Shown piece by piece: positions 12,271 to 64,000 of a DNA stretch of 64,000 nucleotides. Within the stretch, counting starts at the first letter, position 1; each line of letters starts with the position of its first letter. The position numbers and the translations under genes are program-made. Below the pieces are notes generated by a model. That model was not told the DNA's origin. It saw only the letters and a list, made by a program, of their open reading frames with translations, and made no database searches. This DNA comes from an uncultured delta proteobacterium. Its GTDB lineage: Bacteria > Desulfobacterota > Syntrophorhabdia > Syntrophorhabdales > WCHB1-27. The stretch is from positions 509,620 to 573,619 of the forward strand of contig CAWIGL010000003.1 in NCBI GenBank assembly GCA_963835595.1. Direction: 5' to 3'.

Positions 12271-12454
12271 GTTATAAGGTGTGCCAAAGCTCCAACGATG
12301 ATAGTCGGATGCGAAAAGCGCGGGAACGAAAGAGCGCGCAAAACAGCTTTTATGTGGGGAGAGGGTGATAGTATCCCTGTGGCAAGCTACAGGGAATCAA
12401 CAAGTTGACATTACCATAGCAAATTTTTCTTCCTGCCAGTATATTCTAGGGTAA

Positions 12455-39260: not shown

Positions 39261-39264
39261 TAAA

Positions 39265-46881: not shown

Positions 46882-49166
46882 CACTTTCCCTCCTTTTTCT
46901 TCAGCTCCGCGAGGATCTTCTCCGGCGTAATGGGGAGGTCCCTGATGCGGACGCCCACCGCGTCGTAAACGCCGTTGGCGATGGCCGCGATAGTCGAGCA
47001 GGAGCTTGCCTCGCCTGCCCCCTTCGCCCCGAACGGGCCGTAGGGGTCGTGGGTGTGCACGTGGTCTACGATGTACTCCGGGGTGTCGAGGGCGGTAGGC
47101 TGTTTGTAGTCCCTCCAGGAGTGGTTGAGCATAACCCCGTGCCCGTCGTAAAGGGCCTCTTCGAGGAGGGCGTGGCCGGTCATGTGCGCCGAGCCCCCGT
47201 TCACCTGGCCTTCCAGCATAACGGGATGGATGGGCTGGCCCGCGTCGTCGGCGCTCACGCCTTTCCGCAGGCTCACCTTTCCCGTCTCCAGATCGACGTC
47301 CATCTCGACGGCCGTCGCGATGAAATCGATGCCGTGGGCGAGGTTCCCCGCGCCCGTCTTCCAATCGACGAGGTCGATGTCCGTCGCGGCCCAGTAGCCC
47401 CTGCCGTAAAGCGGCGTGCCCATATCGTAATAGGCGGTCCTGACCGCATCGATGAACTTCATGCCTTTCTTCGGGTCGTCCTTGACGTATATCCTCGAAC
47501 CCTTGAATTCGAGGTCTTCAGGCTTGCCGCCCAGTTTCTTTACCGCGATCTCCGCGAGCTGACGTTTCAGATCGTTGGCCGCCGCTATCGTGGCGTTTCC
47601 GTCCCAGTACGTGCACCGGTCGGAGAACATGCCGGAGTCGAGGATCGCCGTATCCGAGTCGCTCGGCCCCTGTATCACGTCCCCGAAGGCGATGCCCAGG
47701 ACCTCGGCGGCCATCTGGCAGAAGACCGTGTTGCAGCCCTGGCCGATCTCCGTGCCGCCGTGGGTCAGCACGATTTTGCCGTCTTCCTGGAGCTTGAGAA
47801 GGACCGACGACCCGAAATGGCCGCCCAGCCTCACCCCCGACGGGTGTGACGCGCAACTGAAGCCTATGCCGCGCCCTTTCGGGCGGGACTTCCTGCTTTC
47901 CTTCCAGCCGATCGTCCCCGCCGACTTCTCGATGCATTCGGGAAGGCCGCAGACATCGACGACAACGCCGTTCGCCGTAGTCCAGTTGTTCGTCACCGCG
48001 TTGACGGACCGTATCTCCACCTGGTCGATGCCTATCTCCTCGGCCACGATGCCGAGCAGGGAATCGACCGCGTACTGGGCCAGCACGATCTCCTGCCCCC
48101 TTACCGTGCCGCAGGGCGCCCTGTTCGAGTAGACGAGCTTGCCGTGATACTCGACGGCGGGCACCTTGTACGGAAGGTTGAGCCACGCCCCGAAGAAATA
48201 GATATTGAAAGGGCCGATGCCGGAGATAGGCCCGCCTTCCAGCACGCACTCCGCCTTGAGGGCCGTGATCTTGCCGTTCTTCTTCACCCCAATCTTCAGG
48301 GTGGCGTCCATCGCGTTGCGCTGCCTGTACCCCGCGAGCACCTCATCGTAATTGAGCACGATCTTGACGGGCCGGTTCGTGACCTGCGCCAGCCTGACCG
48401 CCGCGAAATCGACATCGAAGGGGTCGTGCTTGCCGGAGAATGCGCCGCCGACAAAGGGCGTCACCAGGCGCATCTTCGACAGTGGCAGGTCCAGTGCCCT
48501 GCACATGTGGCGCCAGGTCGGATAAGGGCTCTGCTTGGAGCCCTGCAAAAGGACGCGCCCCGTCGAGTCCACCTCCGCGAGGCACGCATGGGGCTCGATG
48601 AAGCCGACAGCCACGCGCTGGGAGCTGAATTTCTCCTCCCTTATGTAGTCCGCTTCGCTGAATCCTTTCTCCGGGTCTCCGAACATGAAATCGGAGGTAT
48701 AGGCGATGTTGCTCGTGCAGAACTCGTTGACCAGGGGGGCGCCGGCCTTAAGGGCGTCCTGCGCGGTCAGCACCACGGGCAGCTCTTCGTACTCGACCTT
48801 GATAAGGTCGAGGGCCTCTTCCGCCGTATCCTCGTCGATAGCCGCGACTGCGGCTACACCTTCGCCGAAATGGTGCACCTTCGTCACGGGCATGGGCAAC
48901 TGGTCCCGCGTGTCGGGCCTCGTGCCGAAAGGGATGCCGGGGAAATCCTTCCCCGTTATGACCGCCAGCACCCCCGGAAGCTTTTTCGCCCTGCTCGTAT
49001 CGATGTCCAGTATCTTCGCATGGGCCAGGGTGCTCCTCAGTATCTTGCCGTGGAGCATCCCCGGCGCAACGAGGTCACCCGCGTAGCGCGCCTTGCCCGT
49101 AGCCTTGACCCGCCCGTCCGTCCTCTCCACGGGCTTGCCGACCACCTGGTATTCTTCCCTCTCCAT
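46881..49166 (-). CDS. Xanthine-dehydrogenase-family molybdopterin-binding large subunit (second set; 4-hydroxybenzoyl-CoA-reductase-like candidate)
   Basis: MEREEYQVVGKPVERTDGRVKATGKARYAGDL...GKILRSTLAHAKILDIDTS... 761 aa from ATG 49166. The upstream part of the 803-aa ORF is an extension. Confidence 0.85.
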   Translation of the reverse strand: MEREEYQVVGKPVERTDGRVKATGKARYAGDLVAPGMLHGKILRSTLAHAKILDIDTSRAKKLPGVLAVITGKDFPGIPFGTRPDTRDQLPMPVTKVHHFGEGVAAVAAIDEDTAEEALDLIKVEYEELPVVLTAQDALKAGAPLVNEFCTSNIAYTSDFMFGDPEKGFSEADYIREEKFSSQRVAVGFIEPHACLAEVDSTGRVLLQGSKQSPYPTWRHMCRALDLPLSKMRLVTPFVGGAFSGKHDPFDVDFAAVRLAQVTNRPVKIVLNYDEVLAGYRQRNAMDATLKIGVKKNGKITALKAECVLEGGPISGIGPFNIYFFGAWLNLPYKVPAVEYHGKLVYSNRAPCGTVRGQEIVLAQYAVDSLLGIVAEEIGIDQVEIRSVNAVTNNWTTANGVVVDVCGLPECIEKSAGTIGWKESRKSRPKGRGIGFSCASHPSGVRLGGHFGSSVLLKLQEDGKIVLTHGGTEIGQGCNTVFCQMAAEVLGIAFGDVIQGPSDSDTAILDSGMFSDRCTYWDGNATIAAANDLKRQLAEIAVKKLGGKPEDLEFKGSRIYVKDDPKKGMKFIDAVRTAYYDMGTPLYGRGYWAATDIDLVDWKTGAGNLAHGIDFIATAVEMDVDLETGKVSLRKGVSADDAGQPIHPVMLEGQVNGGSAHMTGHALLEEALYDGHGVMLNHSWRDYKQPTALDTPEYIVDHVHTHDPYGPFGAKGAGEASSCSTIAAIANGVYDAVGVRIRDLPITPEKILAELKKKEGK

Positions 49167-49194
49167 TATTGCCCCCTTGTCGGATTTGTGCGCG

Positions 49195-50853
49195 TTAAAT
49201 CTTCCCTTCTTTTTCCATCTTATTTTTGATCTCCTCCCGCAGGGCCTTCTTGTCCACCTTGCCCACCTTCGTGAAAGGCAGCACCTCGACAAGCTCGACC
49301 CTTTCGGGCAGTTGCACGACCGAGGCCCCGACGCCCTTCAGGAACGATACGATATCTTCGAGGGTAGGCGCAAAACCAGGCTTCGGCACTACGAAGGCGC
49401 AGGTCCTCTCGCCCAGTATCTTATCCGGCATGGCGACGACGGCCGAGTCGGCAACTGCCGGATGCATGCTCATCATGTTCTCGATCTCGACTGCGCTGAT
49501 GTTCTCTCCGCCCCTGATAATGATGTCCTTTATGCGGCCCGTGACCCAGATGTTCCCCTCCTCGTCCTTCTTTGCCTGGTCGCCTGTCCTGAAAAAACCG
49601 TCCTTCGTGAAGACCTTCGCCCTGTCCTCCTCCGAGGAGTCGAAATAGCCCGTAAAGACACCCGGCCCCTTCGATACGAGCTCGCCTTCCCCGTTGACGG
49701 GCAGCTCCCTGTCTTCCTGATCGACGACTTTCAGCTCGTCGTACGGGCAGATAGGCTTGCCCACGCTGCCGCATATGAGGTCTATGCTGTCGCCCAGCTT
49801 CGTGCTGGAGCAGGTCCCTTCCACCGAGCCGAACCCGTTGACGAACTGGGCGCCGATCCTCTCACGGACGCTCTTGACCAGCTCGTGGGTGCTCGACGCA
49901 CCGCCGACGGAGACCTTCTTGAGGGAGCTCAGATCGTAGTCGCCCAGGTTCTCCATCTGCATGACCCTCGCGATCAGCGCGGGGACGGTCGGGATCGCAG
50001 TCACCTTCTCCTTCTCGATCCAGGCGCATATGTCTTCGGGCTTCGTCGAGTCGAGGAGCACCAGCTTTGCGTGGCAGAAAAGCGACGCAGCCATCCCCCA
50101 GTGGACGCTCAGGTTGTGGCCGAGGGGGGCGATGACCATGACCGTGTCCTGGCACGTCAGGTCCCACCGGTACGTGTGGTACTCGACATTGTTCCAGTAG
50201 CAGTTGTGCGTGCGGGGACTGAGCTTCGGCAGCCCCGTCGTGCCTCCCGTCGGCAGGATCTGGGAGACCTCGTCGGGGTCGGGGCGCCTCTCTTCGAGGG
50301 CCTTGAGGGTCTGCGCCGTCAGCGCTTCCCGCGCAATCAACGTATCGAGCCGATGGTAGTCCGTCGCCTCCGATGGCCTCGCCTGGATGATGTGCTTTAT
50401 CTGGGGGTTTTCCTTGAGAACTGCGTCGATGGTCGGCTGGTAGGCGATCTTGCCGTACTGCTGCGGTAGGATCCACGCGACGGGCTTCGTCAGCCTGCTC
50501 AGGTGGTTGATCTCCAGCGCGTTGTGGCGCGGTATCAGCACTACGATAATGGCGCCTATCTTCTGGAGGGCAAGCCAGGAGAAGACGAACTCGTGCCAGT
50601 TCGGGAGCTGCAGAAGCACCCTGTCTTTCTCCCTGATGCCAAGCTCCATCAAAGCGACGGCCAGCTTGTCTACGGCCTCGCGCAGCTCCCTGTTGGTCCA
50701 GCGGCCTGCGTCGTCAACCAGGCCGATTTTCTCAGGGTAAATGTCGGTGTGCTTGTTGAAGAAGTCGCCCCAGGTCATGCCGAGCCACCACTTCAACGCG
50801 GTATACTTCTCTATGTCCGCGCCCACGTATGGCGCGCAGCCCTTTATAGGCAT
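49195..50853 (-). CDS. Aryl-CoA/AMP ligase (2,3-dihydroxybenzoate-AMP-ligase-like adenylating enzyme)
   Basis: LPTGGTTGLPK, GHNL, FRTGD, GRIKDIIIRGGENIS, C-terminal KVGKVDKK. 552 aa, intact. Confidence 0.85.
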   Translation of the reverse strand: MPIKGCAPYVGADIEKYTALKWWLGMTWGDFFNKHTDIYPEKIGLVDDAGRWTNRELREAVDKLAVALMELGIREKDRVLLQLPNWHEFVFSWLALQKIGAIIVVLIPRHNALEINHLSRLTKPVAWILPQQYGKIAYQPTIDAVLKENPQIKHIIQARPSEATDYHRLDTLIAREALTAQTLKALEERRPDPDEVSQILPTGGTTGLPKLSPRTHNCYWNNVEYHTYRWDLTCQDTVMVIAPLGHNLSVHWGMAASLFCHAKLVLLDSTKPEDICAWIEKEKVTAIPTVPALIARVMQMENLGDYDLSSLKKVSVGGASSTHELVKSVRERIGAQFVNGFGSVEGTCSSTKLGDSIDLICGSVGKPICPYDELKVVDQEDRELPVNGEGELVSKGPGVFTGYFDSSEEDRAKVFTKDGFFRTGDQAKKDEEGNIWVTGRIKDIIIRGGENISAVEIENMMSMHPAVADSAVVAMPDKILGERTCAFVVPKPGFAPTLEDIVSFLKGVGASVVQLPERVELVEVLPFTKVGKVDKKALREEIKNKMEKEGKI

Positions 50854-51768: not shown

Positions 51769-51945
51769 GACCTATTCAAGGATATTTCAGGGCGATCTGG
51801 TTGTCAAGAAAAAACTCTTCACGAAAAAGACCCCGAAAAGGAAGATATGATATGCTATCATTGGGCACGGAAATGACGACTGATAATAACGAACAGGCAC
51901 TAAAATATAAATAGCAAACGGGATTATAAAGTCGGGAGGTCATGA

Positions 51946-52164
51946 ATGTTCAAGACGGTCGCTTATATCGAGAAAGACACCGAAACGGGGTTCTATGTTG
52001 CGACGGTTCCGGGCATTCCCGGTGCTCACACCCAGGCGGCGACGCTCGATGAGCTGCAAGAGAACCTGAAGGAAGTGGTGGAACTCTGCCTGGAGGAGAT
52101 GGACGCAGAGACAAGAAAACAATTGCCGGAATTTGTGGGATTGCAGCAGATAGAAGAATCATGA
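51946..52164 (+). CDS. HicB-like (UPF0150) antitoxin-family protein
   Basis: 72 aa, MFKTVAYIEKDTETGFYVATVPGIPGAHTQAATLDELQENLKEVVELCLE. An RBS GGGAGG lies 6 nt upstream. Confidence 0.7.
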   Translation: MFKTVAYIEKDTETGFYVATVPGIPGAHTQAATLDELQENLKEVVELCLEEMDAETRKQLPEFVGLQQIEES

Positions 52165-52427
52165 AAGACAGGAAAACAAACGAAATCGATGAGATGCGGC
52201 CGGAGTACGACTTCGATTATTCAAAAGCCGTTCAAGGAAAGTTCTACCGTCGATTGCTTGCAGAAGGGTCCAACGTGGCCGTCCTTGAGCCGGACGTGGC
52301 TAAGGCGTTCCATGACTCTGCTTCGGTAAACGAGGCCCTGAGGTCGCTCCTGGAGCTGACCCGTTCAACGAAGCATCTGACGAAGCGCTCAAGCGGCCGT
52401 GGAAAGAAAATTCCCGCCCGAGCGTGA
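52161..52427 (+). CDS. Small antitoxin-like protein (EYDF..SKA..GKFY motif plus an RHH-like tail)
   Basis: ATGA overlap with the HicB-like gene. MRPEYDFDYSKAVQGKFYRRL...VAVLEPDVAKAFHDSASVNEALRSLLEL resembles small antitoxins I recall from TA loci. The family was not firmly identified. Confidence 0.45.
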   Translation: MKDRKTNEIDEMRPEYDFDYSKAVQGKFYRRLLAEGSNVAVLEPDVAKAFHDSASVNEALRSLLELTRSTKHLTKRSSGRGKKIPARA

Positions 52428-52430
52428 AGA

Positions 52431-52520
52431 AACGAAAAAGGGGACAGGCTACTTTTCCGTATCCTATCATTTGTGGTTCCCACACTCATCACTGAAAAGT
52501 AGCCTGTCCCCTTTTTCGTT
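52431..52520. repeat. 27-bp perfect inverted repeat (AACGAAAAAGGGGACAGGCTACTTTTC) with a 36-nt loop, between convergent genes
   Basis: The arms at 52431-52457 and 52494-52520 are exact reverse complements. A third copy of the core lies at 53898-53920. Confidence 0.85.
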
Positions 52521-52598
52521 CAGTATGCTTGTGTCGCGAAATAAAGCCATCAGGCCACGCCAATTTCGTTAACGTCATTTCTATGGCCGGTCCTCCGC

Positions 52599-53573
52599 TC
52601 AACTCTTGAAGAACTCCCTTATACAGGCCATGGCACAAATCGTAACATCCCTCAACGGCTCCTCCTTGAAGTATCCACGGTAGTGTTCTAATCGCTTCCA
52701 TTCTTCGATGCGGCTGCACCCTCCGTGCACCAGTTCTGATCTTAGGTCGAAAAGTTCCTCTGCCCGCTCCGTCCATCCTTTGTCATCAGCAAAAACCTTC
52801 GTCACCCCTTCCTTAATTTTCGACTCCACCTGTCCCCTGATGCCAAACAAAGCATCCAGTGCTATAAACAGCTGAATGAATTTTTGTCCCCCCGTCGCCA
52901 TTATGCTATTGTGTATAAATTGTGACGCCACCGAAGCCCTTCGGGCCTTTTCCCCTCCCGCGCCGTCACGGGACTTGTACCATTCAACCACCTGCCGAAT
53001 TACCCCATCACTCACTGCTATCTTGCTCAACAGAGGATGGAGCACTATACCGATAGAAGTGTAGACGAGTTCTTCTGAGAACTGCATACAATACGATACA
53101 GGGTAATCAGCGCTCCTACGGAGCACACGGGGATTGGATGAATATTCAAAAGATAACAAGACCGAGATGAAAGTCTTCATTCGCTCCCCGGCTATTTGTA
53201 GCGCTCCTGTCTTAGTTCCTTTAATTTCACAAACCAACCAACTTTCGGGCATGCCTCTGAACAATCTATCCGTAGAACCGGTAACCATACCGGTCTGAGG
53301 ACTCCAACTTCTTACCCCAGAGTACTTCAAGCCCATCCTATCCCAGGCATCCCTGTTTGCGGGTTCAAGGATCGATAGGCCATCGAATCCAATCTCGCTG
53401 GAAGGAACAGACATACGATAAAGGGGGTAGGCTATCAGCCATTCTTTTAGCTCTTGAATCATAGCTTTATGAATCACCTCCCATAGCCGCTTTGAAAATT
53501 CCCTAACATCTTCTATTTTTCTCGCCGAAAACAGAGTGTCTACCTCATGTCCACAGACCTTACCTAGCATCAA
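52599..53573 (-). CDS. Hypothetical protein with a C-terminal HEPN-like Rx4H motif (candidate abortive-infection/toxin RNase)
   Basis: 324-aa ORF in an AT-richer segment. The C-terminal helical region is FIALDALFGIRGQ...AEELFDLRSELVHGG (R278-H283, nt 52725-52742). It may be fused with the upstream ORF 53560-53889. Confidence 0.55.
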   Translation of the reverse strand: MMLGKVCGHEVDTLFSARKIEDVREFSKRLWEVIHKAMIQELKEWLIAYPLYRMSVPSSEIGFDGLSILEPANRDAWDRMGLKYSGVRSWSPQTGMVTGSTDRLFRGMPESWLVCEIKGTKTGALQIAGERMKTFISVLLSFEYSSNPRVLRRSADYPVSYCMQFSEELVYTSIGIVLHPLLSKIAVSDGVIRQVVEWYKSRDGAGGEKARRASVASQFIHNSIMATGGQKFIQLFIALDALFGIRGQVESKIKEGVTKVFADDKGWTERAEELFDLRSELVHGGCSRIEEWKRLEHYRGYFKEEPLRDVTICAMACIREFFKS

Positions 53574-53889
53574 ATAAAGACGGGTTCAAAGCATTTTCTT
53601 TAAGCGCGTTAACTATCGCCGCGCTGAAGCCCTCCAAGTCTCCAAACCGTAAGTTTGTGTCGTAAAGCATGGCCATGGAGCATATGTCCTTGATATGCAA
53701 CCCGGCAGAAGGTGCACACCACCAGATCAGACCTATTCCCCCGTATGGTTGTAAAGGTGTTCTGTTAGCAAAGAACTGGCATTCTAAAGGAGTACGCTCC
53801 TTCAAATTGATACTCTTTGTAACCGATATGACTTTGCCAAGTATATGGTCCAGCTTCATCCTAGACTCAGCCTCTTGTTTTCCCCACAA
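53560..53889 (-). CDS. Hypothetical protein, either a separate upstream gene or the N-terminal part of the HEPN-motif protein
   Basis: 109-aa ORF overlapping the start of 52599-53573 by 14 nt in a T-rich stretch. It has the same low GC as its neighbour. Confidence 0.4.
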   Translation of the reverse strand: MWGKQEAESRMKLDHILGKVISVTKSINLKERTPLECQFFANRTPLQPYGGIGLIWWCAPSAGLHIKDICSMAMLYDTNLRFGDLEGFSAAIVNALKENALNPSLFDAR

Positions 53890-53897
53890 ATCGGAAA

Positions 53898-53920
53898 GAA
53901 AAAGGGGACAGGCTACTTTT
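53898..53920 (+). repeat. Third copy of the GAAAAAGGGGACAGGCTACTTTT repeat core
   Basis: 23 of 23 nt identical to 52434-52456. It is direct relative to copy 1 and inverted relative to copy 2, so copies 2 and 3 bracket the HEPN-motif gene(s). Confidence 0.85.
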
Positions 53921-54203
53921 TCGCCCTCCCTCCGCGCCCTGCGCTCCGATCACATGTTAATCATAGCCACCAGTAATGGTGTATTGCAAGAAAAACATTC
54001 TGCGGCTCTCTTTCAGGAAGAATCAGGTGAGCGATTAGGTCTACGATAACATAAGCGTATTTCGGGGTGCGAGGGCGGCCGGAGAGATTTTCGATGGATT
54101 TCCTGTTGTTTTTCGACGGCGCGCGACGCAGCATACTTTTTGTGTATGTGAGGAGCCGCGCCTAGAAAAACGACGGGAAAGGCGCGAAAATAACCCGGCC
54201 GCC

Positions 54204-55931
54204 TTATAGACTAATCACGTCGGAAGGACAGGTGGAGACGCACAGACCACATGCCACGCATGTATCCTGTTTGATGTGCGCCTTCGGGACGGCGCTCTCC
54301 GTCTGCGGGCCGAAAAGTGCAAGGGGCATCTGCACAAGCTCGATCTCGATGGCCCCGTGGGGGCACGCCTCCTTGCACGCGCCGCAGCCGCTGCACCGCT
54401 CTTCGTTGACTTCCGGCAGCACCCGCTCCTCTTCGTCGTCGAGGCGCATCTCTCCTGCCGCCCCGAGCACCTCGCGGGCCTCCCACCTTGCAGCGCGCGG
54501 GTGGCGGATGAAACCCACATGGTATCGCTTCCGTCCCCATTTCGTCGGCGACCACCGAAGCTGCGGCTCGGACCTGTGAGCGGAGAGAAATTCTTTGTCG
54601 CGCAACGGCGCGACATAGTCCTCAAGCCGGAAGACCCTATCGACCGCGAAGCTCATCTCCCTGCCGCCGCCCGCGACGACAACCGACCCGCCGTCGAGCC
54701 TGACGTCCTCTCCCTCTTCCAGGTGGACGAAAAGGACGCCCTCCCGCCGCGCTTCTTCGTAAGCAAGCTCTTCGTAAGAGGGGGCGGCCATGTTGCGCGT
54801 CAGCACGTAGACCGTCTTCCCGGCCCTGCGCAGGTTTCTGGCAGCCTCGATGAACCGGGACGAGAAAAACTCGTAGAACATCCGCGTCGCCGGGTCGTCC
54901 GTCCCCAGGTAGAAAAGGCAGGAATCGAACGGGCCGTCGGGAAGTGCGATCTCCGGCGGCTCTTCCCTGTATAGCCTGGGGTCGTGCGGTGCCGCCGCGT
55001 GCGCAGCGTCATGGGCGGCAGCGAAACCCGCGCCGAAGCCCGTTAAGATCGCGTCTTTTATATTCATCGGCTCAAGGGCGCCTCCGCAGGCGTAGACCCC
55101 GTCGGCGTCCGTGCGCAAGGCCCCCTTTTCTTCGACGAAGCCAAAGGCATTGAGCGAAAAATTGAAAACGCCGGCAAGCTCCCGCAAGGCCGGGTTGGGG
55201 CGCAGGCCGATCGCCAGCACGACGTAGTCGAACGCCTCTTCGACGAGCTTCCCGCCCGCGAAATAGCGCAGCCGCACCTCGTCCCCTTCCGCCTCGAAGT
55301 ACCGCGAGTTGGCCCTTATGAACCTGACGCCTCCGTCGCGGTATATCTTCTCCATGAAGAACTCGCTCCCGAAGAGGCGAAGGTCGTTATAGAAAACGGT
55401 GATCGCAGGCGCCGCCCTCTGGAGTGTCCATTTTATCTCCCTGATCGTGTAGGAGCAGCAGACGGACGAGCACAAGGGGTATTCCTCGCAGCGTGAGCCG
55501 ACGCAGAGGACAAAGGCGATCCGGTTGAAGTCCGCAGGCAACTCGCCGTTGCGCTGGTCGATCAGGGCGTCGTATTCGAGGCTCGTCAATACCCTCGGCC
55601 CTTTATAGGCGATGGGGTCGTAAGGGGAAAGGCCCGTCGCTACGACCACTCTGTCCGCATCCAGCGTCCGGCCGTCCGAAAGGGTGAGCAGAAACGCGCC
55701 GTCCTTCCGCTGGGCCGCAACGATCTTCGCGCTTCTGATAACGGTAAGGCGGGGGTTTCCGCCGATCTCGTCGTGAAAGGTCTTGAACCCGACGCGGCAG
55801 TTGGCGATGCGCGCCATGAGGCCGCCCGGCTCGGCCGCAGATTCGACCACAACGGCATTGTGCCCCTCTTTGAGGATGACCTTTGCCGCCGATATGCCGC
55901 TGATGCCTCCGCCAGCTATGACTACGTTCAT
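54204..55931 (-). CDS. HdrA-like FAD oxidoreductase with a C-terminal 2x[4Fe-4S] ferredoxin domain (atypical; lacks the HdrA N-terminal domain)
   Basis: MNVVIAGGGISGISAA, FVLCVGSRCEEYPLCSSVCC, DGVYACGG, CSGCGACKEACP and CVACGLCVSTCP. 575 aa, intact. Confidence 0.8.
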   Translation of the reverse strand: MNVVIAGGGISGISAAKVILKEGHNAVVVESAAEPGGLMARIANCRVGFKTFHDEIGGNPRLTVIRSAKIVAAQRKDGAFLLTLSDGRTLDADRVVVATGLSPYDPIAYKGPRVLTSLEYDALIDQRNGELPADFNRIAFVLCVGSRCEEYPLCSSVCCSYTIREIKWTLQRAAPAITVFYNDLRLFGSEFFMEKIYRDGGVRFIRANSRYFEAEGDEVRLRYFAGGKLVEEAFDYVVLAIGLRPNPALRELAGVFNFSLNAFGFVEEKGALRTDADGVYACGGALEPMNIKDAILTGFGAGFAAAHDAAHAAAPHDPRLYREEPPEIALPDGPFDSCLFYLGTDDPATRMFYEFFSSRFIEAARNLRRAGKTVYVLTRNMAAPSYEELAYEEARREGVLFVHLEEGEDVRLDGGSVVVAGGGREMSFAVDRVFRLEDYVAPLRDKEFLSAHRSEPQLRWSPTKWGRKRYHVGFIRHPRAARWEAREVLGAAGEMRLDDEEERVLPEVNEERCSGCGACKEACPHGAIEIELVQMPLALFGPQTESAVPKAHIKQDTCVACGLCVSTCPSDVISL

Positions 55932-56612
55932 AACTTGCCGCCCTCTCCCATGACGTAGAGCAAAAGGTCGGTCAGATAGACGACCTTCCTGTCACCGGTG
56001 AAGGTTGTAAGAGCCATGTGGCACAGGGGACAGAAGACAACGAGGGTTCCCGCCGATTTTTCGAGGATCAGCGTGGAGAGTTTTTCAGTGGCCCATTTGC
56101 CGGCGAAGAACCGGCTGCCCCCGCAGCACTTGTCCTTCACCTTCTCCCCTTCTATCTCCCCGCCGAAGAAGGCAATCGCCTCCTCCATGACGTTCTTGTT
56201 CTTTATGGCCGTGCCTTCGGGCCGCAAGAGTATGCATCCGTAATAGGGCGTGAAGACGCGCCCTTTGAGGTCCCGCTTGGCCGGAAGGCGCGAAAGCGCA
56301 TCGTTGTCGATAAGCTCCAGGGGACTTAAAACATTGTGCGTGCGCCCTCTGTCCGCTTCCTTGAGGTTTTTATAGCAGGCGGGGCACGGGGCGACGACGC
56401 CCGGCCGCCCCAGCTTTTGCGCCTTTTGGAGGTTCTCCCCCGAAAGCTTAAGCAGCTCCCTCCGGTCCCCGTACTCCATCGCCCCGCAGCAGTTCCAGTC
56501 GGGCACATCGCTGAGGGCTGTGGCCCAGGGCAGCGGCGATGCGCCTCACGCCCTTGTCGAGGGTGCGCGCGGAAGCCGTCAGGGAGCAGCCGGGGTAATA
56601 GGCGTAATCCAT
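55928..56612 (-). CDS. hdrB: Heterodisulfide-reductase subunit B-like (CCG domains); one frameshift at about 56515
   Basis: MDYAYYPGCSLTASARTLDKGVRRIAAALGHS|LSDVPDWNCCGA...PCPACY...YYGCILLRP...KCCGG...CPLCH. Confidence 0.8.
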
Positions 56613-57064
56613 CTATCTCCTCTTAACCCTGTGGGGCAGGTGGAAGCTCATGTAGCCCGTCCATCGCGTGAGGTGCTTTATGTAGCCCTCCGTTATCGAG
56701 AAAGCGCAGGGACCGCATGAATACATACGGCTCGTACACCCTGCCCACGTAGGCCACGGACGCCTTGAACGCCCTCTCGAAGGGCGAAGCGACGCCCAAT
56801 GCCTCCCGCAGCGCCATGATGACCTCAGGCACGCGCACCTGCCAGGGGCAGGCGGCAGTGCAGCGGTAGCAGCCCGTGCAGTAGCGGACAAGGTCGTCCT
56901 GCGGGCCCTATCTCTCCGCCGAGAAACAGCCGCGCGAGAAGCTCCTGCGGGTTGACGCCGAGGCCGAGGTCGTTCACCGTGCAGACGGAAGCGCATATCT
57001 TGCAGCCGAGGCAGACCGAAAGGTCTTCCCTGCGCACGCCCGCGAGCTCTATGATCGTTGTCAA
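56613..57064 (-). CDS. hdrC: Heterodisulfide-reductase subunit C-like; two frameshifts (about 56905 and 56720)
   Basis: CLGCKICASVCTV...LFLGGEI|..QDDLVRYCTGCYRCTAACPWQVRVPEVIMALRE...|..FSITEGYIKHLTRWTGYMSFHLPHRVKRR*. The stop directly abuts the hdrB ATG (TAGATG). Confidence 0.75.
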
Positions 57065-58088
57065 TCATCTGCATCGTGCAGCTCGTCCTCCTGGAACGTC
57101 AGATAGGGTATGGCCTCTTCGGCGTCGCGGCCCGACATATAGCCGAACATCCCTTGGAGCCTCTCCGATATGCCCTTGAAGTACGTCGCCAGAGGGATCG
57201 ACTGCGGGCATGCCTCCTCGCACGCCCCGCACCCGACGCAGCTCTGTGAGACGTGGAACATCCTCACCAGATGGAAGACCTCCCGCCCTTGCGGCATGGC
57301 GCCCTGCCCCGTGCGCAGCACTTTGTTGAGCAGGGCGTCGCCCTTCGGCAGGTATTCGTCGCCGTTGAAGAGACAATCGATGCAGTAGCAGACAGGGCAG
57401 ACGTCGCGGCAGTTCTTGCACATGATGCACGAGGCGAAGTCCTTCGCAAAGGCGGCCATGTCCGTATGGAAAGCACCGCCCTTTGGTGACACGGCTTCGG
57501 CCAGGAGCATATCCGGCATCGCATCCGCTGCCTCGCCCTCGATCGAGCTCGAGGAAGGCATCGCCTTTTTCCGTATAGGAGCAAGGCCCAAAGGCTGCCG
57601 TCCGCCGCCGCGCGCACGCCCGCGTCCCCGACGACGCCCCTTCTCTCCCTGCACGTCCGGCAGGCGGGGCGCATCCTGTCGGGCGTCTTTGAAGTATTCG
57701 GCAAGGCCCGGCGCCTCGGCGGGCAGGTCGGCGATCTTCTCCTTCGACGAGACGGTGCCGGGGCAATCGACGGAGACGGCGATGATGCCCGCGGGCTCGA
57801 TCTGGGTCAGCTTGACCAGCTCGACGTACGCCCTTATCTCGCACGGCCGGAGCATGAGGACGATCCTTGCGCCCTTCGAGAAGAGGCGGCGCAGATAGAG
57901 CGCGCCGTTCACGTCGAAGTACGGGTTGAAAAGCGCGTGGCCGTCGATGCGTTCCCTTGAATATCCGGTGGCGGACGCCTTCTGCGCCCCTCTCGAACCC
58001 GAAGACGAGGCAGCCCTCGTCGCCGAGGAACCCGCTCGAGGGCCCTTTCGAGCGCGCCTTCCTTAATCTTTTTTGCCTGCGTCTGCAT
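57061..58088 (-). CDS. Hdr-associated Fe-S protein (AsrA/FrhB-like, two C-terminal 4Fe-4S motifs); 2 or more frameshifts (about 58035, about 57955, possibly more near 57600-57700)
   Basis: MQTQAKKIKEGALERALE|SGFLGDEGCLVFGFERG...RIFK|ERIDGHALFNPYFDVNGALYLRR...MLRPCEIRAYVEL...VDCPGTV...CIMCKNCRDVCPVCYC...CVGCGACEEACP. The family assignment is tentative. Confidence 0.6.
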
Positions 58089-58485
58089 GGGCGGCTTCCT
58101 TTATCTCGTCGTACATGGCGGTCACCTTTTCGAACGAAGCGGCGCGCCTCCGCGGCGCTCACCCAGAAGAGGCGCAGCTTCTCCTTCATGGAGAAGGCGT
58201 CGAGCATCTCCTTCAGGGCCGCGATCTTCCGCCTCGTAAAATAGTTCCCCTTGATGAAATGGCAGTCGCCCGGATGGCAGCCCGCCACGAAGACCGCGTC
58301 CGCGCCGTCGAAGATCGACTTTATGACGAACGCAGGGTCCACCCTGCTTGAGCAGGGCACCTGGACGAGCCTCACCCCTTCGGGGTACTTCATCCTGAGG
58401 CTCCCCGCCATCTCGGACGCCTTGAACGTGCAGAAGGAGCAGGCAAAGCCGACTATCTGGGGGCTCTTTCCGCTTTTTCTTCCAT
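58063..58485 (-). CDS. mvhD: MvhD-like (methyl-viologen-reducing hydrogenase delta subunit family) protein; two frameshifts (A5 run at about 58472, and about 58135)
   Basis: MEEK..|GKSPQIVGFACSFCTFKASEMAGSLRMKYPEGVRLVQVPCSSRVDPAFVIKSIFDGADAVFVAGCHPGDCHF...LFWVSAAEARRF|FEKVTAMYDEIKE... Confidence 0.8.
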
Positions 58486-58513
58486 GATATCCCTCTCGCC
58501 TCTCATAACTTGC

Positions 58514-60197
58514 TCATATGGCCTCCACGAGGGCCGCGATCTCGTCGTCTATCGCGTTGTCGATGTAGCCCCGCAGGCCTGATCGGCCGAGGACGGGCAG
58601 GTGGCGTTGCACAGGCCGCAGCCCATGCAGGCCGCCTCCTCGACGCGGACGATCCTGCGCCGCCTCGTCGTACTTTATCGCCTTCGCCACGCACGCCCTC
58701 TCGCACATCCTGCATCCGCTGCACCGCTTTACATCGACCACGGCGACGAAGGGGTCCACGACGGCGAATCCCGCGCTCAAAAAGCCGTAGAGCTTCACCG
58801 CCGAGGCCCTGCCGTGGTTGATCGCCTCTTCCATGTCCTTCGGGCCGGAGCACGTCCCCGCTATGAAGATGCCCTTGACCGCCGTGTCGTAAGGGCCTGC
58901 AGCTTTATGTGGGCCTCCAGGAAGAACCTGTCCTTGTCGAGGGCGATCTTCATAAGCGACGCAGATCGGCGGCGCTGTCCGCCGGCGGAGACATGCCGAT
59001 GGAGAGCACGGCCAGGTCGAACTCCCGCTCGAAGGGCTCGCCGAGGAGCGTATCTTCGCCCCTTACAAGAAGGCCAGTCGGGCCCGGGATGATCTCAGCC
59101 ACGTTTCCCCTCGTGAAGAGGACGCCCTTCTCCTGCGTCTCCTCGAAGAACTCCTCCCCGCCGCGCGGGTGCGCCCGGACGTCCATGTAGAAGCACTCGA
59201 CGTAGGAGTCCTCGTACCTCTGCCTTGACGGCCTCGGCCGCGCGCAGGGCGTTGATGCAGCAGACCCTGGAGCAGTACGGCCTGCCTATCTGCTCGTCCC
59301 TCGACCCGACGCAATGGAGGATGGCGACCCTCGGCTTCGCCGGCAGGGAAAGGCTGTCCGCCCTTTGCTCGAAATCGACGGTAGTCATGACCGCGCTCGT
59401 CTTTCCCGTAGGCAAGCTCCGGCTTCGCCGATGCGTCGAAGGGTGAGAACCCGATGGCGACGATGCAGCCCCCGGCCGTTATCTCCCTCTCGCCGTCCGG
59501 CGTATGGAGCGTCGCCCTGTAGTTGCCGAAGGCGCCCTCGAAATCGACGACCGTCGTGGAGGTGAAGATCTCGACGTTCTCCCTGCCGCGAAGCTCCGCC
59601 TCCATCTGCGCCGATAACGGCCGCGCCGTCCTTCCTTATGGGCCAGATGTCCTTCAATGTCCTCACGTGGCCGCCAAGGACCGGCCCCTTCTCGACGAGA
59701 TAGACGCGCATGCCCATGTTCGACAGGAATAGCGCGGCCGACAGGCCGGAGACGCCCCCGCCGACGATCAGGGCGGACTTCGTCACCTCGACCGTCTTCT
59801 CTTCGAGGGGCACGTAGTGGGCGGCCGAATAGAGACCGGCCCGGATGAGCCTTATCGCCTTCTCCGTGTTGCGGGCGACGTCGTCGCCGACCCAGGAGCA
59901 GTGCTCCCTGATGCCCACCCGCCGCAGCAGGAAGGGGTTGAGGTCGGACTTCCGCAGCACGTCCTTGAAAAGCTCGTCGTGGAGCGACGGCGTGCAGGAG
60001 GCGATGACTACGCGGTCGAGGCCCTCTTTCTCGATGCCCTCCCGGATCATGTCCTGGCCCGGCTCGGAGCAGACAAAGGGGTAGTCGGACGCGACGACGA
60101 CGTTGGGGAACGTGCTGAAGTAGTCGCGGACCTTCCGCACATCGACCGTCTGCTTGATGTTGTGCCCGCAATGGCAGATAAATATGCCCGTTTTCAC
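58514..60197 (-). CDS. hdrA: HdrA-type flavoprotein (N-terminal Cys domain, FAD domain, C-terminal ferredoxin domain); about 7 frameshifts
   Basis: GTG start overlapping the upstream [23 protein letters not shown]...VCSEPGQ...VVIASCTP...REHCSWV...[17 protein letters not shown]...|AQMEAELRG...|[14 protein letters not shown]...[22 protein letters not shown]...|[18 protein letters not shown]...|[14 protein letters not shown]..|[20 protein letters not shown]...[11 protein letters not shown]...|[20 protein letters not shown]..|[20 protein letters not shown]. The shifts lie at about 59610, 59410, 59225, 58957, 58900, 58648 and 58585. Confidence 0.75.
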
Positions 60198-62900
60198 CTG
60201 CTTATATACTCCAGGCAGCGCGACGCCGCCTCCCCCGCCGAGGCCACCGTGTCGGGCACGTCCTTCGGCCCGGAGGCCATGCCGCAGACGAATATGCCTT
60301 CTACGTTCGTCTTCGACGGGGCGATGGCGTCAACCTTTATGAAGCCGTAGACGTCCCGCTCGACGGAGGCCATCTCGCACAGATCGGCCGTCTCCGCGCG
60401 CGGCCTCACGCCCGTCGCAAGGACGACCACATCGACCTCGATTTCCGCAAGCTCGCCTGAGAGCATGTCCTCCACCCTTACGAGAAGCCCGTTTGCGCCC
60501 TTCGTCACCTCTCCGGGGATGCCCCTTATGTAGCGGACGCCCGCCTCCTGCGTGGATCTTGTAGAATTCCTCGTAGCTCTTCCCGTAGGCGCGCACGTCG
60601 ATATAGGAGACATAGACCTCGGCGTCCCTTATCCTGTCGATGACGATGCTCGCGTGCTTCGCCGTGTACATGCAGCAGACCCGCGAGCAGAACCGCGCGC
60701 CCGTCTGTCGGTCCCTGGAGCCGACGCACTGGATGAAGAAGAAGCGCTTCGGCTCTTTGCCGTTGATGATGATATCGCCGCCCGTCGGACCCGTGACCGA
60801 GCAGATCCGCTCGAACTCGATGCCCGTCATCACGCCTTCGAGGCTGCCGTAGCCGTATTCCCTTTTTTCCGTCGGGTCGTAAAGGTCGAACCCAGGCGCA
60901 AGGATGATGCCGTCGCAGGCAAGGTCTATCGTCTCGTCCTTCATCGTGTAGTCGATGGCCTTCACCTCGCACCGCCGCTCGCACTCCCCGCACTCGATGC
61001 AGCCCTCCACCTGGCCCGCGAGGCAGCGGGACGCCTCCCGGCTTGCGCCTTCCGGCCCGTAGGCCAGGCGGACCTCCCGGAAATCGGCAATCCTTGCCTC
61101 CGGCGGCTCTTCCGGCACAGGCTCGCGGCCGCATGACGCGATCTTTGCCTTGATATCCGGCCTTCTCCGCATCCGACAGGGCCTGGGGCCGGGGGCTATC
61201 TCTTCCGGCGCTGAAAGGTCCTCACCTTTCATGTACCTGTCCATCGAGACCGCCGCCCTCTTGCCTGCGGCTATGGCGTCGATCACGTAGGCCGGGCCTG
61301 TCGCCACGTCGCCCCCGGCGAATATTCCGGCCCGGCTCGTCGCCCCTGTCGCAGGGTCCGTCTTTATCGTACCGGCCTCCGATACGGCTATGGAAAGGGC
61401 ATCCGCAAAAGAGACTTCCGGCGACTGGCCGAGGGCCGTGATGACCATATCGAAGGGCAGGCGGAACTCGGAATCCTCTACGGGGCGCGGCCGCCTGCGG
61501 CCCGATGCGTCCGGCTCGCCAAGCTTCATGCGGACGCACTCTATCCCGGTAAGCTCCCCTTCGCTGCCGATGAACTTAACAGGCGCCGCCAGAAACTCCA
61601 GGGCGATCCCTTCTGCCGCGAGGGCCTCCACCTCTTCGGCCGCTGCGGGCATCTCTGCGGCTGTCCTGCGGTAGACGACGGTCACGTCGCTGCCGAGCCT
61701 TCTCGCCGTCCTCGCGCAATCGACCGCCGTGTTGCCGCCGCCTATAACGGCTGCGCGCCTGCCCACCGAAAGCGGTTCGCCGGACTCGACGCCGCGCAGG
61801 AACGTCAGGCCGTCGATGACCCCCGCAAGCCCTTCGCCCGGGACGCCGAGGGCGATGCCTTGCGGCGCGCCCGTGCCGATAAAGACCGCGTCGTAACCGG
61901 CCGCTATCTTATCGAGGGCCACCTCCCTGCCTACCGATACGCCGCATTCGATGCGGACGCCAAGCCTGCGGATGTAGTCGATCTCTGCGGCAAGCTCCGA
62001 TTTGGGCAGCCTGTATTCCGGTATCGCGTACCTCAACATGCCGCCGGGCTCGGGCAGCGCCTCGAAGACCGTCACGTCGTGGCCGAGCAGCGCGAGGTCG
62101 TGGGCGCAGGCAAGACCCGCGGGGCCTGCCCCGACGATAGCCGCCTTCTTCCCTGTCTCCTGGGCGCGGAGCGGCGGCGCAGGCGCAGGCGCGAGGTCCG
62201 CGACAGCGCGCTTTATGTCGCGGATCGCCAATGGCTGGTCGATCTCTCCCCTGTTGCAGACGCCTTCGCATGGCGCGTAGCAGACCCTCCCGCAGACGGA
62301 AGGAAAAGGATTCGTCTGCCTTATAAGGAGATAGGCGTCCTCGAACCTCCCCTCGCTCGCGTGCTTGAGATAGCCGGGGACGTTCGTATGGACGGGGCAG
62401 GCTGCCATGCACGCCGCCTTGCACTGCCTAGGGGCGCGCTTGTCTATGCTCGCCTTGTTGGGGATCGCCTGGGGGAAGGGGATGTAGATCGCCTTGCGCG
62501 GCCCCGTCCCCATGTTGAACTCGCTCTTCATCACGACGGGACAGAAGACCGAGCACGCTCCGCACGCGTTGCACTTCGATATATCGACGAAGCGCGACTT
62601 TTTCAGAAGCGTGACTGCGAAGCCGTCGCCCGATTTCTTTATCGCGACGGGCCGCGTCCACGACAGAAGGTCGATGTTCTTTTTCAGCGCGACCTCGACC
62701 ATCTTGGGCGAGAGGGTGCATGTCGAGCAGTCGAGGGTGGGGAATGTCTTGTCGAGCTGTATCATCCTCCCGCCTATCGACGGCCCCGCCTCGACCATCG
62801 TCACGCGCACGCCGCACGAGGCAAGGTCGAGGGCGGCAGTGATACCGCCGATGCCGCCGCCAACCACGAGGACATGCTTATCCCCCATTTCGCCGATCAA
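60194..62900 (-). CDS. Large HdrA-type protein with an inserted GltD/NfnB-like NAD(P)H module (HdrL-like, about 900 aa); one frameshift at about 60558
   Basis: VLVVGGGIGGITAALDLA, LDKTFPTLDCSTCTLSPKM, CNACGACSVFCP. The insert is CPVHTNVPGYL...CGRVCYAPCEGVC...KKAAIVGAGPAGLACAHDL...AAVIGGGNTAVDCART...GIFAGGDV. HdrA then resumes: CIECGECERRCE, FIQCVGSRD, CSRVCCMY. The tail STQEAGVRYIRG...FVCGMASGPKD lies in ORF 60194-60613. The start is TTG 62900 or ATG 62888. Confidence 0.8.
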
Positions 62901-62964
62901 TGCATTTTCCTTTTTTTAAGGGGGACGACCCGCTAAAGCGGGTGCCCCGACGAGCTTTGCTCGT

Positions 62965-62994
62965 GGAGGGGGCGCTGAGCCTCAATGATTGCCT
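62965..62994 (+). repeat. Copy B of the 30-nt intergenic motif (GGAGGGGGCGCTGAGCCTCAATGATTGCCT)
   Basis: 28 of 30 nt identical to 12241-12270. It is preceded by hairpins (CCCGC-TAAA-GCGGG; ACGAGC-TTTG-CTCGT) and CCTTTTTTTAAGGGGG at about 62913-62928. It lies in the etfA-hdrL spacer. Confidence 0.6.
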
Positions 62995-63002
62995 ATCCCC
63001 AT

Positions 63003-63938
63003 TCATCCTTTTAAGACATCTTTCATCTTGTCCCGGAGCTTGTTCGCGTCCCCAACGAAGCCGAAATGGGCGTACTGGAATATAGGCGCTTCCGGGTCCT
63101 TGTTGATCGCTATGATGCACTCCGAGTCCTTCATCCCCGCTATGTGCTGGAACGCCCCGGAGATCCCCATCGCAAAGTAGACCTTCGGCTTGACCGTCTT
63201 GCCGGAGGTTCCCACCTGGCGCGGCTTGGGGAGCCATGCCTTGTCGATGACGGGCCTCGACGCGCTGAGCACAGCCTTGAGGAGGTCCGCAAGCTCCTCG
63301 TATCCCGGTATCTCATCCTTGCTCCCGATGCCCCTGCCGACGGAGAGCAGGAAATCGGCCTTCGTGATGTCGATGGCCCCCTTCTCTTCCTCGACGTATT
63401 CGACGAAGCTCCTTCCGGGGTCCGTCTCCACGGCCTCAAGCACGGTCTCTGCCGCAGGCGCGCCTTTGGGGACGGCCTGCTCCTTGAAGCTCCCGCTCCG
63501 CACCGTCGCTACGAACCCGCCCATCTGCGGCCTGAACTCGCCGAATATCTTGTCCGAGTAATAGCTCTTCAGGAAAACATTCTTCTCAGGGTCGTACCCG
63601 CTCACGTCCGTTATGAGAGGCAGGCCGAGCGCGCCCGCGGCATACGACGCAAGCTCGATCCCCGACGATGAGCCGGTGAAAAGGAAGGCGTCGGGTTTAC
63701 CGGCCGCGTCGATCGCCTTTTGGAGTATGCGGACCATATTGAGGGGATTTAAGAAGTCCGTCTCCTGCACCTGCGCCCTTATGACCGCGTCGGCCAGATC
63801 GCCGCTGCCGAAGGCGACCCCGGCGGGCGCGAGGAGCCGTACCTCTTTGCCGAGGAGGCGCGCGAGGCCGATAGCGTCGAGGTTCCTCTCCTCGAAGAGA
63901 CCGCGCCTTACCTCCGCGACGACCAGTGCGTAGCTCAT
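63003..63938 (-). CDS. etfA: Electron transfer flavoprotein, alpha subunit
   Basis: [10 protein letters not shown]... The C-terminal FAD-binding region is [13 protein letters not shown]...[10 protein letters not shown]...[29 protein letters not shown]...[13 protein letters not shown]. The ATG at 63938 overlaps the upstream stop. Confidence 0.85.
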
Positions 63939-64000
63939 TGATACACCCCCTTCTCCTTCAGGATGCCGAGAAGCTCCTTGCATACGCCGTCGGCCTCCCC
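63935..64000 (-). CDS. etfB: Electron transfer flavoprotein beta subunit, C-terminal fragment (runs off the window)
   Basis: The reverse strand reads ...[21 protein letters not shown], with ATGA coupling to etfA. The call rests on position and on a C-terminal tail typical of EtfB. Confidence 0.5.
   Translation of the reverse strand, partial: GEADGVCKELLGILKEKGVYQ

Follow-up and report, generated by a model that had tools for sequence, protein, structure and literature searches.

The stretch of DNA analysed here (the window, 64,000 nucleotides of contig CAWIGL010000003.1 from an uncultured delta proteobacterium of the Syntrophorhabdales) carries on its minus strand, at positions 54204-64000, the downstream nine-tenths of an 11-gene operon that joins an electron transfer flavoprotein (ETF) to subunits of the heterodisulfide reductase (Hdr) type. 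In operon order, the genes encode an acyl-CoA dehydrogenase (ACAD), an HdrD/BamD-like protein, EtfB, EtfA, HdrL, HdrA, MvhD, an FdhB-like protein, HdrC, HdrB and HdrA2. We lean towards the view that they specify one soluble cytoplasmic complex coupling the acyl-CoA/enoyl-CoA couple to HdrA-type flavin-based electron bifurcation or confurcation, a view that draws on the observed gene content and order of the cluster, its conservation, the soluble nature of its products and their motif patterns.

The order of the ten genes from hdrD-like to hdrA2 is the same in all 71 loci of the Syntrophorhabdales type, as found when the ten proteins of a relative with unbroken genes served as tblastn queries against 80 loci obtained by scanning one genome per GTDB species. 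Fifty-five of these loci are complete and the remaining 16 are interrupted by contig ends alone; the cultured isolate Syntrophorhabdus aromaticivorans UI is among the 71. The corrected HdrL protein has thousands of homologs, the best 120 of which are about 900 aa long, 68-96% identical and mainly from metagenome-assembled genomes (MAGs) of Syntrophorhabdales. In Dehalococcoidia and in Acidulodesulfobacterium-like MAGs, more distant relatives combine HdrL, HdrA and MvhD with HdrB or HdrC and have no etf genes.

Gene content and setting of the operon

Genes were identified by six-frame translation, Pfam, tblastn and sequence searches of the PDB, and the region was compared with a 158-kb ENA contig (97-99% identical) and three short-read contigs of the same organism, all recovered by exact-protein look-up. 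The right window edge cuts etfB, the ETF beta subunit gene, of which about the last 65 nt (63935-64000) lie inside. Next, all on the minus strand, come etfA (63003-63938; ETF alpha subunit of 311 aa, Pfam ETF and ETF_alpha, with the exact protein in a short-read contig), hdrL (60197-62900; an HdrA core with an inserted GltD/NfnB-like module, identified by Pfam and PDB matches), hdrA (58514-60197; 557 aa once corrected, and an intact 557-aa open reading frame (ORF) in locus L002) and mvhD (58063-58485; a 140-aa [2Fe-2S] adaptor, Pfam FlpD at 2.9e-32 and NCBIfam VhuD and HdrA2 C-terminus). The remaining genes are that for the FdhB-like di-cluster Fe-S protein (57061-58088; 337-339 aa in relatives, frameshifted in the window), hdrC (56613-57074; 152 aa with two cubane-cluster motifs, intact in L002, L003 and L004 and traced by three-frame tblastn), hdrB (55928-56612; 227 aa with two CCG domains, Pfam CCG and PDB HdrB at 7e-11) and hdrA2 (54204-55931; an intact HdrA-like protein of 575 aa, by Pfam and PDB HdrA at 9e-32).

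A first reading of the window from its letters alone (the sequence-only reading) had proposed nine minus-strand genes that include three HdrA-type flavoproteins, one with a GltD module, together with MvhD, HdrBC, an extra di-cluster Fe-S protein and EtfAB. The Pfam and PDB searches agree with these identities, and eight of the nine genes are complete; the ninth, etfB, had been placed inside the window, where only its 3' sliver lies. The tight packing from which a single operon had been deduced is supported by the junctions and gene coupling: the GTGA at 60194-60197 (hdrL/hdrA), the 26-nt overlap of mvhD with the FdhB-like gene at 58063-58088, the coupling of the latter to hdrC by a 14-nt overlap ending at 57061, and the ATGA at 55928-55931 (hdrB/hdrA2) are all found in the sequence. 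At 56612-56615 the coupling of hdrC and hdrB stands, while the TAGATG read there contains a spurious G and is a 1-nt TAATG overlap in the three other assemblies. Terminator and promoter scans inside the cluster gave hits at chance level only. No transmembrane segment was found in any of the ten cluster proteins, and none of the subunits reaches an NCBIfam equivalog cut-off.

To the right of position 64000, the ENA contig (L090) continues with the rest of etfB, a soluble 363-aa Fe-S/CCG protein and the ACAD. The etfB gene, a PF01012 gene of 252-259 aa in L002/L090 and in L005/L008, lies directly upstream of etfA and overlaps it. The earlier impression that the cluster has "no obvious partner enzyme" was thus an effect of the window edge, because the window ends inside the operon, and the proposed link to acyl-CoA dehydrogenases gains support from an ACAD gene that immediately precedes these genes in L090 and is present no more than 7 kb upstream of the cluster in 33 of the 71 loci (30 members on the same strand). 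The same flank census places an AMP-forming CoA ligase upstream in 29 loci, a sigma-54 regulator in 22 and the transporter genes DctP, DctQ and DctM in 17-18; downstream of the cluster it revealed no conserved gene family. Farther upstream, L090 encodes a divergent histidine kinase of the PAS type, a response regulator that depends on sigma-54 and a DctPQM TRAP transporter. The ACAD gene of L090 is preceded at 65 bp by a -24/-12-like element (TGGTACGAAGATTGCT), 12 other loci have sites upstream of the cluster that fit the strict sigma-54 consensus, and the operon is probably under sigma-54 control.

Two further elements adjoin or interrupt the operon. In relatives the etfA/hdrL junction is a 4-nt ATGA overlap (L005 compared), which is replaced here by an insert of about 100 bp (62895-63002) that is also found in L001, L002 and L090 and is confirmed by a short-read contig. 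It is flanked by a AATGGGGAT-like direct repeat and belongs to a family of short, hairpin-rich intergenic elements resembling repetitive extragenic palindromic (REP) sequences or miniature inverted-repeat transposable elements (MITEs), with related copies at 12210-12272 of the window and in other Syntrophorhabdales loci, several of them in tandem in L072 (about 22800-23120). A separate insertion of about 190 bp between hdrA and mvhD (L002 7239-7432, equal to L090 13881-14074) occurs in the ENA assembly and is absent from the window, and is therefore polymorphic between strains. Directly downstream of hdrA2, a low-GC stretch (51940-54050; 0.49 against about 0.61) contains a frameshifted 401-aa ORF that matches nothing in Pfam, together with a pair of small ORFs, one of them with a weak HicB-antitoxin-like match. 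Since no counterpart of its genes is kept downstream of the cluster in other genomes, this stretch looks like a species-specific insertion.

Flavoproteins, iron-sulfur subunits and a variable NAD(P)H module

The three HdrA paralogs of the operon divide the features of a canonical HdrA among them. Deletion of the spurious base 60558 yields an HdrL ORF of 897-901 aa that is 89-90% identical to the proteins P0001 and P0002; its residues 161-568 match NfnA (9n5u) at 9e-123, and the parts flanking them match HdrA (5odc) at 2e-110. The GltD module (Fer4_20 and Pyr_redox_2), whose best solved relatives are NAD(P)H flavoproteins of the NfnA/NfnB/GltD type, splits the ferredoxin insert of the HdrA core. 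HdrL lacks the N- and C-terminal HdrA domains and carries the motif FPTLDC(S/A)TC, the cysteine motif of HA4 and, five residues past the CC pair, a lysine. All three features are invariant in the 55 orthologs, the lysine (the equivalent of Lys409) within CCMYTAK; in the HdrA of M. thermolithotrophicus, Lys409 forms a hydrogen bond to N5 of the bifurcating FAD (PMC6405883). These hallmarks of a bifurcating flavin, the DCSxC pair and the Lys409 equivalent, are kept in HdrL alone among the three paralogs.

HdrA consists of an N-terminal cluster domain, a TrxR-like core and a C-terminal 2x[4Fe-4S] domain and matches methanogen HdrA at 5e-122. It has neither the inserted ferredoxin domain nor the FPTxDCSxC motif, and an Arg occupies the Lys409 position. 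HdrA and HdrL are complementary in that the former supplies the N- and C-terminal cluster domains absent from the latter. HdrA2 is a degenerate HdrA-like flavoprotein. It has an HA4-type Cys motif and a C-terminal 2x[4Fe-4S] domain but no CxxC pair, and here too Lys409 is replaced by Arg. Its residues of about 315-500 (window about 54430-54990) make up a conserved middle domain of about 185 aa, for which neither Pfam nor PDB sequence searches gave a match and hhalign against HdrA-N, MvhD and the N-terminal part of the FdhB-like protein found no relationship; an AlphaFold2 model built from the single sequence, of low confidence (pLDDT 34), tentatively suggests an alternating beta/alpha pattern.

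The NAD(P)H (GltD) module pointed out in the sequence-only reading is not a fixed component. Nine loci encode a short HdrL, an HdrA core of 430-445 aa that keeps the CxxC pair and has no GltD insert: L068 (9977-11284; S. aromaticivorans UI), L067, L071, L073, L075, L076, L077, L080 and L081. No GltD-like gene was found within 10 kb of these loci. Seven of the short-form loci could be included in a neighbour-joining tree built from four other subunits, where they are scattered over at least four separate places among the long-form loci, which implies that the module was lost or gained repeatedly. The pyridine-nucleotide module is therefore an accessory that is labile in evolution and sits on the branch which in canonical HdrA reduces ferredoxin (the low-potential branch).

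The same design as in HdrL recurs elsewhere in the window, in a gene set of the xanthine dehydrogenase family (4-hydroxybenzoyl-CoA-reductase-like; 41475-43910, plus strand, with 38730-41562) whose 811-aa FAD subunit has a Fer4_20 and Pyr_redox_2 module of the GltD/NfnB-like kind inserted between FAD_binding_5 and CO_deh_flav_C. A second such set (45521-49292, minus strand) has an ordinary FAD subunit, and each of the two sets has its own AMP-forming ligase and IclR regulator.

The HdrB protein contains all ten cysteines of two non-cubane clusters, and its CCG and CxxC motifs are invariant in 53 of 53 orthologs; HdrC matches the NCBIfam HdrC model below its cut-off. The FdhB-like protein is related to FdhB of Fdh-Hdr supercomplexes (9t1s_M, 1.4e-22; 7bkb_E, 3.6e-19), with matches that span both its C-terminal di-cluster domain and an N-terminal 'LRPCEIR' segment, and the matched FdhB subunits are those that link formate dehydrogenase to MvhD/HdrA in methanogen supercomplexes.

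The CCG protein encoded beside the etf genes (363-364 aa) combines two cubane motifs with two CCG domains. Among solved structures, it is most similar to the cytoplasmic part of EMO/EtfD from mycobacteria (9ojn_A, 7.4e-54, residues 33-346), and it shares 41-44% identity with the BamD encoded in the window. In place of the CxxC of HdrB it has SPHC, invariant in 64 of 64 orthologs, as does the BamD of the window. No haem b transmembrane domain was detected in it, the maximum 19-residue hydropathy being 1.05. In both BamD and EMO, a conventional ETF docks on the non-cubane-cluster domain (bioRxiv 10.64898/2026.04.10.717634; 10.64898/2026.08.18.745454), and in benzoyl-CoA reductase the ETF on BamD is the high-potential acceptor of HdrA-type bifurcation (bioRxiv 10.64898/2026.04.10.717634).

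Ranked by similarity alone, EtfB is closest to non-bifurcating ETFs (W3A1, 1o94_C, 8.7e-36; Paracoccus, 2.4e-25) and less close to CarD (2.3e-21). The PDB ranking of EtfA is mixed (Geobacter ETF 5ow0_A, 8e-42; 5ol2_A, 3e-40), and EtfA has no N-terminal ferredoxin domain. The ACAD has Bcd (5ol2_C) and CarC as its best PDB relatives and by sequence similarity is predicted to be of the Bcd/CarC-like short- or medium-chain type; no NCBIfam equivalog identifies its substrate, the best model being AcrC, for which the score of 374 bits falls short of the cut-off of 640.

Proposed electron flow and alternative explanations

From these parts we infer a single complex, its subunit contacts, a direction of electron flow and a third substrate, in a wiring drawn by analogy with the docking of ETF on BamD and EMO and from the motif pattern. 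The ACAD would exchange electrons with a conventional ETF, which would dock on the soluble BamD/EMO-like protein at its non-cubane-cluster (CCG) domain. Electrons would pass from there over the two cubane clusters of that protein to the HA4-type cluster and bifurcating FAD of HdrL, forming the high-potential branch. The low-potential branch would leave HdrL through the inserted ferredoxin domain and, in long-form species (most, including this one), lead to NAD(P)H through the NfnB/GltD-like module; in short-form species (about one in eight) it presumably serves ferredoxin. A third, two-electron route may run over MvhD, HdrA, the FdhB-like protein and HdrA2 to canonical HdrBC, where the substrate is possibly a thiol/disulfide. 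In the reductive direction, NAD(P)H or a thiol would reduce enoyl-CoA with the generation of low-potential electrons, and in the oxidative, syntrophic direction electrons from ETF would be lifted with the use of reduced ferredoxin or NAD(P)H. By an estimate from standard potentials, confurcation would be balanced where a disulfide at about -200 mV is the acceptor.

The fully specified version of this scheme, a soluble HdrA-type bifurcating enzyme of Syntrophorhabdales in which ETF is the high-potential partner via the BamD-like protein, NAD(P)H or ferredoxin is the low-potential partner and canonical HdrBC acts on a bacterial thiol/disulfide, is offered tentatively and may well be wrong in one part or another. 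Several points weigh against a single ETF-linked complex and against this version of it. Co-transcription is no proof of a single complex, and the cluster is known from sequence alone. The REP-like insert parts etfA from hdrL in this organism, and the ACAD gene does not adjoin the cluster in every locus and is on the opposite strand in strain UI. The conventional type of the ETF, predicted as the one it most resembles, is read from a similarity ranking. HdrA and HdrA2 may also be bifurcating sites, because in Nfn and Etf it is an Arg, the residue they have at the Lys409 position, that contacts N5 of the bifurcating FAD (PMC6405883). Confurcation of reduced ETF and reduced ferredoxin to NAD(P)H is thermodynamically marginal, again by an estimate from standard potentials. 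Finally, the scheme does not account for the role of canonical HdrBC, and no thiol-carrier gene linked to the cluster was found.

The alternative that survives best holds that the transcript encodes two separate units, a trio of ACAD, ETF and soluble Fe-S oxidoreductase on the one hand and, on the other, an 'HdrABC/HdrL' NAD(P)H:disulfide/ferredoxin bifurcating complex that would reduce a DsrC-like or other disulfide at HdrB and make no use of ETF. HdrL, MvhD, the FdhB-like protein and HdrABC do occur without etf genes in Syntrophobacter fumaroxidans (Sfum_0819-0824) and Desulfobacterium autotrophicum (PMC5947623, PMC2702500), and etf is likewise absent from the more distant loci L051-L055 and L084-L089. 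The full complement of ten cysteines in HdrB, as at a catalytic heterodisulfide site, fits this division, and trios of ETF, a CCG-type Fe-S oxidoreductase and ACAD are common elsewhere (PMC5606693). However, the CCG protein of the operon has no membrane, haem or other acceptor module and so would lead nowhere on its own, and BamD, its nearest functional analogue, is attached to an HdrA-type subunit. The invariance of the ten-gene order in 71 loci and the 4-nt overlap of etfA and hdrL in relatives also speak against two units, as does the absence from nine loci of the GltD module that the second unit requires, and we regard this division as unlikely.

The sequence-only reading had further suggested that the cluster delivers electrons to, and provides the energy coupling of, a class II benzoyl-CoA reductase without its own bamEFGHI. 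Genes of this enzyme do lie in the same 64-kb window, where Pfam and frame translations identify, on the minus strand, bamB (about 2696-4667, frameshifted), bamC (2188-2709), bamD (987-2142), an fdhD-like sulfurtransferase gene (fdhD, 107-983) and the first codons of bamE (about 1-40), which runs off the left window edge. The BamB of the window is 86-97% identical to proteins annotated as BamB, and the architecture of the etf-hdr cluster parallels that of BamDEF with ETF (bioRxiv 10.64898/2026.04.10.717634). In the ENA assembly (L091 13687-17143), moreover, bamE matches only to about residue 731 of 940 and is followed by unrelated genes with no bamFGHI, a truncation that may be a misassembly or a real rearrangement.

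The claim that bamBCD lacks adjacent bamEFGHI nevertheless proved to be another edge effect: bamE follows bamBCD and fdhD at the left window edge, and a relative with a 90% identical BamB (L092 13684-21601) has the complete set of bamBCD, fdhD, bamE, bamF (FlpD and helix-turn-helix (HTH) domains), bamG, bamH and bamI. The bam locus and the etf-hdr operon are about 50 kb apart with housekeeping genes between them, searches up to 10 kb from the etf-hdr cluster in about 80 loci gave neither bamB nor bamC, and the conserved neighbours of the cluster are instead ACAD, CoA ligase and TRAP transporter genes. With the apparent loss in the ENA assembly possibly a misassembly, the substitution of the cluster for missing BamEFGHI is unsupported and a dedicated Bam module very improbable. 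The bamE of the relative is itself split into 76 and 940 aa by an in-frame TGA (L092 about 14776-14778) inside FPTNDCSM*ILAPK, which most likely encodes selenocysteine (Sec) at the second position of the CxxC pair beside the bifurcating flavin; the equivalent pair in HdrL is Cys/Cys.

The frame breaks of the window are assembly errors, because independent assemblies without the extra bases give intact ORFs. Between 56518 and 57055 the window has four to five single bases more than the short-read contigs L003 and L004 and the ENA contig, among them three to four spurious insertions in the hdrC region and the base at 56518 in hdrB, and both hdrC and hdrB are unbroken in these three assemblies. 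In etfA, it is the ENA contig that has nine extra bases, the window being 100% identical to the short-read contig there, and the break sites differ between the two long assemblies. The suspicion voiced in the sequence-only reading that the frameshifts are sequence errors is thereby borne out, and the genes are intact throughout in relatives (L005 and L008 among those compared). Beyond the operon, about 50 indels separate the window from the ENA contig over 19.8 kb, single-base indels break frames across the whole window (for example at 53564, 49928, 2696-2778 at the bamB 3' end and 1700-2140 in bamD), and bamB, bamD, fdhD and an AMP-ligase are frameshifted as well. Gene calls from this contig need polishing beforehand. 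A decaying pseudogene array with genuine frameshifts, to which the dozen or more frame breaks across 9.8 kb might point, can be set aside with near certainty given the intact ORFs of the short-read contigs and second assembly, the different break sites of the window and ENA assemblies, the unbroken, 60-90% identical orthologs in 55 genomes and the frameshifts in housekeeping-type genes such as bamB.

Relation to known Hdr systems and significance

The placement of the cluster outside the known Hdr complexes, made from the window alone, is upheld on a wider scale, as neither the window nor the 7-10 kb around the cluster in the 71 loci yielded partners of the Flx-Hdr, MetFV-Hdr, Ldh-Etf, Qmo or Mvh/Fdh-Hdr systems. 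There is no FlxA for Flx-Hdr, no MetF or MetV for MetFV-Hdr, no GlcD-type dehydrogenase for Ldh-Etf, no FixC or FixX for FixABCX, and neither a membrane subunit nor apr genes for QmoABC. The sHdr sulfur-oxidation cluster would call for LbpA, DsrE or TusA, none of which is present, and is represented just by a generic HdrA match to 6tjr. Mvh/Fdh-Hdr lacks its catalytic subunit: no hydrogenase (MvhAG) or FdhA input was detected, whether in the window region, in L090 or in the surrounding 7-10 kb of the 71 loci.

The Hdr core itself has precedent, its composition being that of the 'HdrABC/HdrL' clusters of S. fumaroxidans (Sfum_0819-0824) and D. autotrophicum, which are known from genomes and proteomes and whose enzyme is uncharacterised (PMC5947623, PMC2702500). 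The S. fumaroxidans cluster has been detected in proteomes, and clusters of this kind are discussed as DsrC-linked (PMC5947623, PMC2702500). Likened by published description and not by sequence, these clusters share with ours the HdrL fusion, MvhD, a formate-dehydrogenase-beta-like Fe-S protein and HdrA/B/C, and locus VIII of D. autotrophicum also has an hdrL/hdrA tandem with hdrD (PMC5947623, PMC2702500). They differ in having no etfBA, no ACAD and no context of sigma-54 regulator, TRAP transporter and CoA ligase, and in the GltD part of HdrL, which is missing from nine Syntrophorhabdales loci.

Class II benzoyl-CoA reductase, the Bam[(BC)2DEFGHI]2 complex of Geobacter metallireducens, resembles the proposed complex in its HdrA-type bifurcating flavin beside a non-bifurcating HdrA-like unit, its MvhD-type adaptor, its pyridine-nucleotide input module and its soluble HdrD-like CCG protein, which has a Cys-to-Ser change and passes the high-potential electron to a conventional ETF. 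The etf-hdr cluster, by contrast, has no BamBC tungsten module, and its HdrA units are three proteins, 29-41% identical to BamE, where Bam has one fused, Sec-containing BamE. Its MvhD is 140 aa long without an HTH domain whereas BamF is long and has one, and its NAD(P)H module is of the GltD/NfnB type inside HdrL whereas BamGHI is of the NuoEFG type; no Complex1_51K or 2Fe-2S_thioredx genes were found in the cluster. It also adds canonical HdrBC and the FdhB-like protein.

With the methanogenic Mvh/Fdh-HdrABC complexes, the cluster shares the domain logic of HdrA, the HA4 motif, Lys409 and DCSxC (in HdrL), MvhD, the FdhB-like connector, an HdrC with two cubane motifs and an HdrB with ten cysteines. 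It differs in having no catalytic subunit of hydrogenase or formate dehydrogenase, in spreading the functions of HdrA over three paralogs and in adding an ETF and a second CCG module, and CoM-S-S-CoB is not expected in a bacterium. FlxABCD-HdrABC of Desulfovibrio and the Flox-Hdr of syntrophs likewise have a link to NAD(P)H, an MvhD-type adaptor, a bacterial HdrABC and a proposed bifurcation or confurcation. No cluster protein, however, has an FlxA-type flavin/[2Fe-2S] subunit or FlxBC domains; the NAD(P)H site is in the GltD module of an HdrA paralog, and ETF, ACAD and the BamD-like protein are added.

With Bcd-EtfAB and CarCDE, the cluster has in common the encoding of an ACAD with etfBA (L090, L005 and many loci), and the pairing of ACAD and ETF with a link to pyridine nucleotide and ferredoxin makes Bcd-Etf a functional analogue; the difference is that bifurcation would here be seated on an HdrA-type flavin, since the ETF of the cluster is predicted, from the ranking of EtfB, to be of the non-bifurcating kind. 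The EMO (EtfD)-ETF pair shares the combination of a cubane and a non-cubane (CCG) domain and, by extrapolation to the cluster, the docking of ETF, but the CCG protein of the cluster has no haem or membrane domain, so that no quinone would be involved. The parts are thus known, and this combination of ETF and Hdr is uncharacterised: no paper naming an Etf-Hdr cluster was found in the literature, with an earlier mention possible in the paper on the genome of S. aromaticivorans (Nobu et al. 2015).

How ETF is re-oxidised and how low-potential electrons arise are the two questions of syntrophic aromatic degraders that this cluster addresses, the more so as ETF is reduced also by class II benzoyl-CoA reductase and not just by acyl-CoA dehydrogenases (bioRxiv 10.64898/2026.04.10.717634, a 2026 preprint). 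The cluster is a candidate for a second Hdr-type bifurcation that uses ETF, outside benzoyl-CoA reductase. It gives added context to the uncharacterised bacterial 'HdrABC/HdrL' family and, kept in every Syntrophorhabdales-type locus recovered, that of the cultured strain UI included, is directly testable; the natural presence and absence of the NAD(P)H module could be exploited in experiments. If the fully specified scheme is true, the enzyme run in reverse would lift electrons from acyl-CoA oxidation and from Bam-reduced ETF to about -200 mV or lower without need of a membrane or quinone, and would offer syntrophic aromatic degradation a route within the cytoplasm as an alternative to the reverse redox loop of EMO.

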